NCBI RefSeq assembly: GCF_000027125.1
Contig: NC_017626.1
From: Escherichia coli 042
GTDB lineage: Bacteria > Pseudomonadota > Gammaproteobacteria > Enterobacterales > Enterobacteriaceae
DNA: 64,000 nucleotides
Direction: 5' to 3' (one strand)
The notes beneath the pieces are model-generated. The model saw only the letters and a program-made list of their open reading frames with translations. It was not told the DNA's origin and did not search any database. The position numbers were made by a program, and so were the translations under genes. Below are positions 13,073 to 16,317 of this stretch, piece by piece. Numbering within the stretch: the first letter of the stretch is position 1; each line of letters begins with the position of its first letter.

Positions 13073-14104
13073 TTAGCGACCCTGGTCCGGCGGTGTAATG
13101 TTATCCATATACAGCGTCTGGCTGGGGAAGGCAAAGTCCGCGCTGTGTGACTGTACAATATCGATAATCTTCAAATAAACGTCTTGCTGTGCAGCAAGCC
13201 ATTCAGCCCATACCGTGGTTTTGGTAAAGCAATAAACCATAATATTCAATGAGGAGTCAGCAAACTGGTTGAAATAAACCAGTAAGGTTTGTCGCTGGTC
13301 AATGGCCGGGTGATTTTTCAGCATCTCACGTACGGCTTCGACAATAACGCCCACTTTTGCCGCATCCTCATAACGTAAACCAATGGTCGTGGTAATGCGC
13401 CGGTTGGTCATTCGTCCTGGGTTTTCTACGCTGATTGACGAAAACAGCGAGTTCGGTACGTACAACGGACGATTATCAAAAGTCGTAATCTTGGTAATTC
13501 GCCAGCCAATTTCCGCTACTGTACCTTCGATATTTCTGTCCGGTGAACGGATCCAGTCGCCAATACTAAAAGGACGGTCGAAATAGAGCATAATCCCGGA
13601 AAAGAAGTTACTCAGAATATCTTTACCGGCCATACCGACAGCCAGACCACCAATACCACCAAAGGTCAACAAGCCAGAAAGGCTCATGCCGAAATGTTCG
13701 CCATAAAGCAGAACAAGCACAACAATAATGGTGATTTTGATGATACGCGACATAATCCGCGCACTGGTGATATCGCGACCTTTTTTAATCTGCTGTTTTT
13801 CAAACTGATTTATCAGCAGAAATAGTTTAATCGTCAGAATAACCGCAATCAGGGACGTACAGATAAAATCGATAACGCCTGGGGTGATAAATTTGAGTTT
13901 ATAGTTTTCTATAACATAATTAATGATGCTACCAACAGCACTGATAATTATGGTGTAGATTAAAAATTGCACCGCATGGAATAAAAATCCTTTTCTTTTA
14001 CGATTTCCGCGGCGAAACCAAAAGCTCATCAGAATCAATGCTGCGCAGCTACCGAAAATAATGACCAGATTAAGCGCATTATTTGTAAACAGTTCAGCGA
14101 TCAT
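13073..14104 (-). CDS. ynaI: Small-conductance mechanosensitive channel, MscS family
   Basis: 343 aa, multiple TM helices plus MscS-like C-terminal domain. Confidence 0.85.
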
Positions 14105-14347
14105 TGTTTTATCAGGCTCCTCCAGATAATTGTCGTCATGCCGGAAACCCCTGGCGGGGCTATTTTACCGCGACAATTCATTCAGATCATCAATAGTCAG
14201 GGAAGGAAGTAGCAACATTAGCTAACTAATCAATGCGTTGATTGTAAATCCAGCTAAGAGGTGAGGTTTTCAGAGCAGACAACGGTAAAATGTCATGGTA
14301 TTGTTATGTTTAGGTAACAAGAAATTTGTCTGCACAAGGATTACATC

Positions 14348-14605
14348 ATGATTATGGCGAAACTGAAGTCAGCGAAAGGGAAGAAATTTCTCTTTGGTTT
14401 GTTGGCGGTTTTCATTATTGCGGCGTCGGTTGTGACTCGCGCGACCATCGGCGGCGTGATAGAACAGTACAATATTCCGCTGTCTGAGTGGACGACATCA
14501 ATGTATGTGATTCAGTCATCGATGATTTTTGTTTATAGCCTGGTCTTTACTGTGTTACTGGCAATCCCGTTGGGAATTTATTTCCTTGGCGGCGAAGAGC
14601 AGTAA
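14348..14605 (+). CDS. ynaJ: Small inner-membrane protein YnaJ
   Basis: 85 aa, two hydrophobic segments; conserved position before uspE. Confidence 0.8.
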   Translation: MIMAKLKSAKGKKFLFGLLAVFIIAASVVTRATIGGVIEQYNIPLSEWTTSMYVIQSSMIFVYSLVFTVLLAIPLGIYFLGGEEQ

Positions 14606-14617
14606 GTAAATAAATAT

Positions 14618-14641
14618 CCTCCGGCATAGCCGGAGGTTTTT
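14618..14641 (+). terminator. Rho-independent terminator after ynaJ
   Basis: CCTCCGGC-ATA-GCCGGAGG hairpin followed by T5. Confidence 0.5.
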
Positions 14642-15330
14642 CAAATGCGCCTATAAGGCTCTCTTACCAGCCGCGCCCTAACAGGCGCACACGATCTGAC
14701 ATTTGCATCCAACTTCGTTACTTACGGCCCGTAAACGGGCTGCCCGGATAGGGAATCGATAACTGCTCTCCCATTTTATCCTCTTCAAGCTGGTGCTTTA
14801 TGTAATCCTGTATCTTCGCCGTGTTCTTACCCACCGTATCGACGTAATACCCTCTGCACCAGAACTCCCTGTTCCTGTATTTGAATTTCAAATCACCAAA
14901 CTGCTCGTAAAGCATCAGACTGCTTTTCCCTTTCAGATATCCCATAAAGCCTGATACGCTCATTTTGGGCGGGATCTCCACAAGCATATGGATATGATCT
15001 GCACAGCATTCAGCTTCCAGAATCCGTACACTTTTCCACTCACACAGCTTTCTCAAAATACAGCCTATTGCTCTACGCTTCTCTCTGTAGAACACCTGTC
15101 TTCGGTATTTTGGCGCAAATACTATGTGATATTTACAGTTCCATCGGGTGTGCGCTAAGCTCTTTTCGTTCCCCATTGGGACCCCCTTTTGATTTCTTGT
15201 TTGACACTTGCAGTTGCCAGACCGCAAGGTGTTTTAACAAATCAAAAGGGGTTTTAATAACTGGCTCAAAGCTGAAAGCTTTCCGGAACCCCCAGCCTAG
15301 CTGGGGGTTTTCTGTGCACAAAAAATAGGC
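14640..15330 (-). mobile_element. IS200-like insertion sequence (IS200/IS605 family); boundaries approximate
   Basis: About 690 bp between ynaJ and uspE terminators containing a Y1 transposase gene and a terminal hairpin CCCCCAGCCTAGCTGGGGG (about 15287..15305). Confidence 0.55.
14718..15176 (-). CDS. tnpA: IS200-type Y1 (HuH) transposase TnpA
   Basis: Start at internal Met with RBS: MGNEKSLAHTRWNCKYHIVFAPKYRRQVFY..., 152 aa; HuH motif HIHML and catalytic Tyr region. Confidence 0.8.
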   Translation of the reverse strand: MGNEKSLAHTRWNCKYHIVFAPKYRRQVFYREKRRAIGCILRKLCEWKSVRILEAECCADHIHMLVEIPPKMSVSGFMGYLKGKSSLMLYEQFGDLKFKYRNREFWCRGYYVDTVGKNTAKIQDYIKHQLEEDKMGEQLSIPYPGSPFTGRK

Positions 15331-15366
15331 CCGTTAACTCGGGCCTTGTCAGTTATTGAAGAGTCG

Positions 15367-16317
15367 TTAATCGTCTTCTTCGTCATCCAGTTCAACGGGT
15401 GTCTGATATTGGTCAGGTTTAATGACCAGCAGGTCGCAGCGAAGATGATCAATCACCTGTTCCGCCGTGTTGCCGAGGAATGCTGCTGAAATACCGGTGC
15501 GTCCGACCGTGCCCAGAACCACAATCCCCGCCTGTAAATGCTCCGCCAAATCAGGAATCACCTCTTCTGGCAGACCTTTTTCTACGTGCGTCATGTTTTC
15601 ATTAATGCCGAATTTCTGCCGCAGGGCTTTCATTGCCAGCAAATGTTGCCCACGAATGGCATCGTTATAAACGCTCGGATCAAATTCCGGCAGTTCAATC
15701 GCGATATTAATTGGCGTTACCGGATAAGCGCCAACCAGATGAACTTCGGTATGGTTGACTTGTTCCGCCAGTTCGATCGTCTCTTTGACCAGTTTTTCAT
15801 TGAGCGCATTATGGTACGGCTCTTCACTGGCGAGATTCACCGCCACCAGCGCCTTACCCCCTTCCGGCCACGGCTGGTCTTTCACCATCCACACCGGGCT
15901 TGGGCATTTGCGTAACAGATGCCAGTCCGTTGGCGTAAAAATCACCGCTTCCAGACGGTCATGTTGGTGCGCCATTTTTAGCACCAAATCGTGCCCGCCG
16001 CTGATCACTTCCTGAATGATGGCTTCGAAAGGACGGTTATGCCAGACCACTTTAATTTCAATGGGAACGCCAGCATTGAGATAATATTTTGCCTGCTCGT
16101 GGATCCAGGCTGTACGCTGGCTGATGACGCCCTGACGCATAGCGGTACGTTCGTCCGGAGAGAGCAGGGTGGTCATTTCGTATGAGAAGTCATAGATCGG
16201 CAAAAAGGCTTTAATTTTGCCACCAATCCGTTGATGTAAATAAACAGCTCGCCGCAATGCTGGTTGGTCGTCCTGGTTAGGATCGATAACAACGAGCATG
16301 TTCTGATACATAGCCAT
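15367..16317 (-). CDS. uspE: Universal stress protein E (tandem Usp domains)
   Basis: 316 aa from [17 protein letters not shown]... Confidence 0.9.

Follow-up and report, generated by a model that had tools for sequence, protein, structure and literature searches.

The spacer between ynaJ and uspE in the stretch of Escherichia coli 042 DNA analysed here (64,000 nucleotides of contig NC_017626.1, referred to below as the window) holds, with a probability that we put at about 90%, a complete copy of the known insertion sequence IS200C (IS200/IS605 family, IS200 group) that is polymorphic among strains, probably competent for transposition and sited at a terminator. The copy is full length, lies on the minus strand and has a conserved core of 711 bp (Table 1). 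IS200C is already catalogued and publicly annotated at this exact position, and the kind of site was known as well; at the identical locus of other strains the RefSeq product is given as 'IS200/IS605-like element IS200C family transposase'. For the locus itself the insertion means little: it is a neutral-looking polymorphic insertion of a catalogued element and serves mainly as a lineage marker. The location of IS200-group elements almost exclusively just behind intrinsic terminators, in many phyla, is a pattern not specific to the window copy; it bears on the choice of safe sites by the smallest autonomous transposons and could be of use for the structure-guided retargeting of HuH transposases.

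Table 1. Features of the ynaJ–uspE region (positions refer to the window)
Feature	Position	Strand	Evidence or remark
ynaI	13073..14104	-	
ynaJ (DUF2534), left flank	14348..14605	+	Pfam DUF2534 4.5e-41, RefSeq
IS200C element	14609..15319	-	left end G1 = 15319, right end T711 = 14609
Right-end subterminal hairpin CCTCCGGC-TAT-GCCGGAGG	14618..14636	.	terminator-like sites on both strands
tnpA, intact 152-aa Y1 (HuH) transposase	14718..15176	-	Pfam Y1_Tnp and NCBIfam transpos_IS200
STnc490 (RF01405; IS200 left end and tnpA 5′UTR)	15186..15309	-	cmscan, full length
Left-end subterminal hairpin AACCCCCAGC-TAG-GCTGGGGGTT	15287..15309	-	element nt 11-33, STnc490 model positions 1-23
Native uspE intrinsic terminator (insertion target)	15320..15346	-	terminator scan
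uspE, right flank	15367..16317	-	NCBIfam UspE equivalog NF008380, 576 bits, 1.1e-173, RefSeq

Identity and limits of the element

The ynaJ–uspE spacer is 761 bp long (14606–15366), and the original prediction had given this whole span to the element. The element does lie inside it, but takes up 14609–15319 only; the other 47 bp (15320–15366) are the native uspE 3′UTR with its terminator. Limits were set by comparison with the empty site and by comparison of multiple copies. The nearest empty allele, that of strain 7/2, agrees with the window at every position of 400 bp of flank to either side, the GTTAAC loop variant among them, and its empty site reads GTAAGT-A6-TAGG (T6 on the other strand). 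Against this allele the insert amounts to 712 bp, as it does in the wider comparison of filled (1601 bp) with empty (889 bp) alleles, which leaves one A/T beyond 711 bp in the window. The junction has a register ambiguity of 1 nt within an A/T run, and the extra A/T falls at either 14608 or 15320; this 712th base could stem from slippage in the T-run or from imprecise cleavage at the junction. The 711-nt core, GTGCAC...GGATATTTATT, is common to the window element and ten IS200C copies at other sites, and the latter have the exact ends GTGCACAG...GGAGGATATTTATT throughout. The two ends (GTGCACAGAAAA... and ...GGATATTTATT) are unrelated and terminal inverted repeats were not found between them, nor did the comparison of the filled with the empty allele reveal a target duplication of 2 bp or more. 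From the ten other copies the window copy differs at 1–9 of 711 nt and at 0–2 amino acids in TnpA, and a 736-bp stretch is 100% identical in another genome.

The only ORF in the 711-bp core with a match to a protein family is tnpA; there is no tnpB. Its product matches Pfam Y1_Tnp (PF01797) over model positions 2–121 of 121 (E 1.7e-37, 128.7 bits, cutoff 23) and NCBIfam transpos_IS200 (NF033573; E 6.7e-43, 145.9 bits, cutoff 55), with H61-I-H63 as the HuH motif and a catalytic-type Tyr125 accompanied by Gln129 (YxxxQ). It aligns end to end with solved structures (2ec2, 1.2e-22), the values for the transposases of IS608 (2a6m) and ISDra2 (2xm3) being 1.1e-18 and 4e-16, respectively. The window protein has Cys39, vs Ser in the commonest IS200C protein (WP_000526135.1), and Leu89, vs Pro in another common variant; none of the variable residues (C39S, L89P and a few others) is catalytic. 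Together with the Rfam match and both end hairpins described below, these family assignments bear out the expectation of a complete IS200-like Y1 (HuH) element in the spacer. A truncated gene or a different element, named in advance as what would speak against that expectation, is ruled out by the full length of the element and its intact ORF, and the few differences from other IS200C copies agree with this. A REP-associated tyrosine transposase (RAYT) was also considered and rejected, as NCBIfam REP_Tyr_transpos scores 31.4 bits vs a cutoff of 80; the location of tnpA inside a multi-copy mobile element disfavours it too.

In a search with the 1,601-bp query spanning the spacer, the filled arrangement turned up in 14 records out of 5,426 complete E. 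coli genomes, and most of the others, among the chromosomal matches listed, show the empty pattern of two pieces totalling 889 bp. This empty-site comparison, which had been proposed as a check on the insertion, gives a ynaJ–uspE spacer of 49 bp in most other E. coli. Copies of IS200C (at least 80% query coverage) are present in 2,056 of the 5,426 genomes, at up to 35 places per genome. A second, independent IS200C in the uspE terminator was found in CFSAN018748: it is another variant of the IS (4 SNPs, Ser39 protein), resides in a different flank haplotype, follows the fifth and not the sixth T, and forms a clean 711-bp insert.

It should be asked whether the window copy might be a dead relic, that is, a passive 0.7-kb spacer insertion with a truncated or inactive transposase. 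IS200 is described as almost dormant and its transposition as extremely rare (PMC4513863), and the window TnpA has the less common residues C39 and L89, all of which a relic would accommodate; yet both ends are present in a full-length element, the ORF is intact with its HuH and Tyr/Gln motifs, the distance from other copies is only 1–9 nt, and IS200C occupies many sites, up to about 35 places per genome. Near-identical copies at many sites imply recent activity of such copies, and according to the literature IS200 copies called 'active' hardly differ from those called 'inactive' (PMC4513863). A relic is thus highly improbable, and we hold to a complete element that is probably capable of transposition.

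uspE, ynaJ and their terminators

The gene uspE is co-oriented with tnpA. On the tnpA strand the uspE stop codon is followed by 20 nt, then by the terminator hairpin AGGCCCGAGTTAACGGGCCT (15327–15346) and its tail ATTTTTT (15320–15326), and IS200C starts at the next base with GTGCACAG.... The insertion therefore begins right after the last T of the terminator, and its placement just downstream of the uspE 3′ end in the original prediction was correct. The accompanying suggestion of an effect on uspE termination finds no support. The hairpin AGGCCCGAGUUAACGGGCCU and the tail AUUUUUU, a complete U-tract, are identical to those of the nearest empty allele and adopt the same fold in the filled and the empty state, and the left-end hairpin of IS200C, itself a terminator, lies 10 nt beyond the uspE terminator; with the native hairpin and tail unchanged and a terminator of the IS only 10 nt further on, the sequence gives no support to disturbed termination. 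The uspE terminator hairpin is polymorphic in its loop (15333–15340), for which the window and strain 7/2 have GTTAAC, and K-12 and the majority of other strains GATAAC; its stem is unaffected.

On the other side of the element, the ynaJ stop codon is 3 nt from the right end of IS200C. Where the site is empty, the convergent genes ynaJ and uspE share a single hairpin, whose T tail on the ynaJ strand is poor (CTTGTCAG). The insertion cuts ynaJ off from this hairpin, and 13 nt after its stop codon the plus strand now presents the terminator-like right-end sequence CCTCCGGCATAGCCGGAGG TTTTT. Judged from these sequences, ynaJ would be the gene whose 3′ end changes, exchanging the shared hairpin for a better-looking one followed by T5.

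Such a change raises the question of whether the insertion matters to the host, through weaker termination of uspE or as a selected regulatory module (the ynaJ terminator, RNAs from the tnpA 5′UTR and art200). The rewiring of the ynaJ 3′ end to the right-end hairpin and T5 would suit a host effect, as would the fact that the uspE terminator was struck twice independently, and RNAs derived from the IS200 5′UTR regulate host genes in Salmonella (PMC5435999). Against it stand the unaltered uspE hairpin with its complete U-tract and the rarity of the insertion, which is filled in so few of the genomes compared and is lacking in a strain whose flanks are identical, so that selection is not suggested; recurrent insertion in the uspE terminator is explained by target preference. 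We consider a host effect improbable and favour a neutral-looking insertion.

Further along the left flank, the spacer between ynaI and ynaJ measures only 243 bp (14105–14347) and carries no IS5, as had been noted from the sequence. The remark that K-12 does have an IS5 at this place was likewise accurate, since one is seen there in DH5alpha; the lack of IS5 agrees with an origin of the window outside the K-12 lineage.

End hairpins, regulatory RNA and related elements

The left-end hairpin is a perfect palindrome of 10 bp that folds at -18.0 kcal/mol; its 19-mer has a single occurrence in the window, where shuffles lead one to expect 0. It is presumed to be the hairpin bound by TnpA, as in IS608. 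In Salmonella IS200 the left-end hairpin is a bidirectional terminator (nt 12–34) that blocks transcription from outside (PMC4513863) and stops about 85% of upstream transcripts (PMC5435999). The right-end hairpin is also perfect, with 8 bp, and folds at -14.8 kcal/mol; on the minus strand it is followed by ATATTTATT, the 3′ end of the element. The left CCCCCAGC-TAG-GCTGGGGG and the right CCTCCGGC-TAT-GCCGGAGG represent one architecture with two compensatory pair changes, and GAAAA(A) precedes both hairpins on their 5′ side.

The left end and the tnpA 5′UTR match the Rfam family STnc490 over the entire model (1–124 of 124; cmscan, 146.4 bits vs a gathering score of 56, E 4.4e-31). A stem-loop in the 5′UTR (15186–15248) sequesters the Shine-Dalgarno sequence GGGGG (15182–15186); in Salmonella IS200 the 5′UTR stem-loop acts as a translational repressor and the antisense RNA art200 represses further (PMC4513863). 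By homology, tnpA in the window would be kept silent by the two terminators in front of it, by sequestration of its ribosome-binding site and by an art200 antisense RNA. A scan of 14200–15500 for sigma-70 promoters gave no match, in keeping with the description of the tnpA promoter of IS200 as weak and undefined (PMC4513863). Two further Rfam matches were rejected: Ysr202, at 29.5 bits vs a gathering score of 315, covers the right-end hairpin only, and a fluoride riboswitch match inside the fnr antisense (16 bits, E 0.68) is noise.

The window copy is the same element as IS200C of E. coli and differs from it only in its allele (C39 and L89 in TnpA) and its site. Salmonella IS200, for which a length of 707 bp is given (PMC4513863), and Yersinia IS1541 share with IS200C a size of about 707–711 bp, a single tnpA, the left-end terminator hairpin at nt 11–34, the stem-loop in the 5′UTR that hides the Shine-Dalgarno sequence, and a full-length STnc490. 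IS1541 has in addition the exact 19-nt left-end hairpin and the position after a hairpin and T-run; its left end begins GTGCCCAG and that of IS200C GTGCACAG, the two being species-specific sequence variants. More distant are IS608 of Helicobacter pylori and ISDra2 of Deinococcus radiodurans, which have in common with IS200C a homologous TnpA, subterminal hairpins at both ends, the lack of inverted repeats and of target duplication, and a left end that abuts a specific target. Unlike them, IS200C has no tnpB and its hairpins are perfect rather than imperfect palindromes. The target also differs, being a T-run behind a hairpin in IS200C, whereas it is TTAC or TTGAT in IS608 and ISDra2; a T-run precedes the left end in all IS200C copies compared. 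Outside this family, group IIC introns resemble IS200C in that they insert immediately after the stem-loops of intrinsic terminators and are oriented like the gene that ends there. They are retroelements with a ribozyme and a reverse transcriptase, in contrast to an element with a HuH DNA transposase, and there is no homology between the two.

The exact 19-nt left-end hairpin, CCCCCAGCTAGGCTGGGGG, is retained in IS200-like elements of many phyla, the carriers belonging to Pseudomonadota, Desulfobacterota, Bacillota, Elusimicrobiota and Saccharibacteria, and the 12 nt that precede it differ. Conservation across phyla points either to a very strong constraint on the hairpin or to recent horizontal spread. 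A solo left-end hairpin was seen in Dickeya undicola (640–760 of the locus taken from contig_9), where it forms part of a longer perfect palindrome, TTTTTTGTCTATAGAAAA-hairpin-TTTTCTATAGACAAAAAAA. It follows a terminator-like hairpin and is not accompanied by an IS body, so it could be what is left of an IS200-like element or a miniature form derived from one. In Ruminococcus MAGs the 19-mer belongs to another multi-copy repeat, …GGGCTTCGCCCGTTAAAGAAATA-hairpin-ATGCTTATT…, which frequently lies at the ends of contigs and is probably the end of another element of the IS200/IS605 family.

Terminators as insertion sites

A GC-rich hairpin with a T-run stands directly 5′ of the left end at all ten distinct E. 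coli sites examined. Nine of these are chromosomal and are the terminators of genes co-oriented with tnpA (uhpT, ydgA, tkt, fabF, carB, galU, plaP, rnb and uspE). At the tenth, on the P1-like plasmid p98200, IS200C splits a phage antirepressor (KilA-N/KilAC) gene; this in-gene copy, too, is located behind an internal hairpin and T-run, ACTATGCAATTCTGCATAGTTTCTTTTT.

The comparison was extended by searching a single genome of each species for the 19-nt left-end hairpin, which gave at least 120 loci in Y. pestis (IS1541), Vibrio, Brenneria, Edwardsiella, Oxalobacter, Mailhella/Desulfovibrio, Bacillota, Peptococcaceae, Elusimicrobia and Saccharibacteria. About 15 of the 124 19-mer matches listed (Ruminococcus, Thioploca and other MAGs) were excluded as lying in an unrelated repeat context. 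Under a strict definition (stem of at least 5 pairs, loop of 3–8 nt, at least 5 T in 8), a hairpin with T-run precedes 89 of 109 distinct IS200-type left-end junctions (82%) among the matches listed, vs 75 of 4,720 random positions in the same loci (1.6%). A preceding hairpin was found for 7% of all runs of at least five T and for 15% of such runs outside ORFs of at least 100 amino acids; relative to the latter figure, the 89 of 109 junctions among the matches listed yield a binomial p of 4e-54, so that a preference for T-runs combined with avoidance of genes does not obviously account for the pattern. Most of the 20 failing junctions among the matches listed have visibly imperfect hairpins.

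In Y. pestis NCTC5923 a tandem arrangement of IS1541 was observed in which one left end directly abuts the right end of another copy (...GGAGGATATTTATT followed at once by GTGCCCAG...). Its junction, ...TTTATT joined to GTGC..., that is ...ATATTTATT joined to GTGCCCAG..., supports the ends assigned to the element. Apparently either the right end, a hairpin with a T-rich tail, served as a target here, or junctions between right and left ends were retained.

The association with terminators is not in itself new. Terminator-like stem-loops were reportedly proposed as hot spots for IS1541 by Odaert et al. in 1998 (J Bacteriol 180:178), and a 2025 preprint found terminator-like sequences to be over-represented upstream of ISs, most strongly for IS200/IS605. 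A demonstration of a mechanism by which terminators are recognised was not found in the searchable literature.

For IS608 a single-strand mechanism and a guide rule for target choice have been described (PMC5934647, PMC5027513). If IS200C behaved like IS608 and ISDra2, a TnpA dimer would bind both hairpins on the single-stranded tnpA-sense ('top') strand, excise this strand as a circle and insert the circle 3′ of a short sequence in a single-stranded target, picked by its pairing with a guide immediately 5′ of the left-end hairpin. We infer such 'peel and paste' transposition for the IS200C TnpA from this analogy. The GAAAA(A) before the hairpins would fit T-rich cleavage sites, namely the target T-run and ...TTATT at the right end, and suggests pairing of an A-rich guide with a T-rich target. 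A GC hairpin before the T-run appears to contribute to a good target; with a target of this kind, IS200C would come to lie behind intrinsic terminators, in a position in which it does no harm and is protected from read-through.

Two accounts of the pattern have to be weighed. According to one, which we advance tentatively and rate as less likely than not, IS200-group transposases would actively recognise terminators as structured single-stranded targets, composed of a GC hairpin and T-run, resembling the right end and read by an A-rich guide. If so, terminators and not a plain short sequence would dictate both the site and the orientation of insertion, and this would explain how a near-dormant element reaches tens of copies without damage to genes and why the 19-nt hairpin is conserved exactly across phyla. 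According to the other, the association would reflect survival only, with integration specific to T-runs and subsequent purifying selection, without recognition of the target structure. In-gene insertions such as hisD984::IS200 (PMC4513863) and the p98200 copy do exist, as this second account requires, and intergenic sites away from terminators may be harmful by holding promoters. On the other hand, only 15% of the T-runs outside long ORFs have a hairpin, vs 82% of the junctions among the matches listed; even the p98200 copy within a gene lies behind a hairpin and T-run; and the tandem IS1541 is found exactly after the right-end hairpin and T-rich tail of another copy. Survival alone is in our view less likely than not as well.

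The hairpin itself might act by mimicking the right end or by making the T-run accessible in folded single-stranded DNA, or it might simply mark the sites that survive selection. The distance from the stem to the insertion point is about 3–7 nt at targets vs 9 nt at the right end, and this mismatch in spacing makes mimicry imperfect and weakens it as a full explanation of targeting.

In 32 of 36 loci of at least 8 kb the GC skew is positive on the tnpA-sense strand, an orientation consistent with single-strand transposition. The plus strand of the window has a GC skew of +0.05 overall and near zero locally, and the window copy would thus belong to the minority orientation, with its top strand probably on the leading-strand template. 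Between 40001 and 64000 the plus-strand skew of the window rises to 0.09–0.13, vs about 0 in the 8–40 kb part, and the GC content of the whole window is only 48%; this segment may have been acquired horizontally, for example as a prophage.
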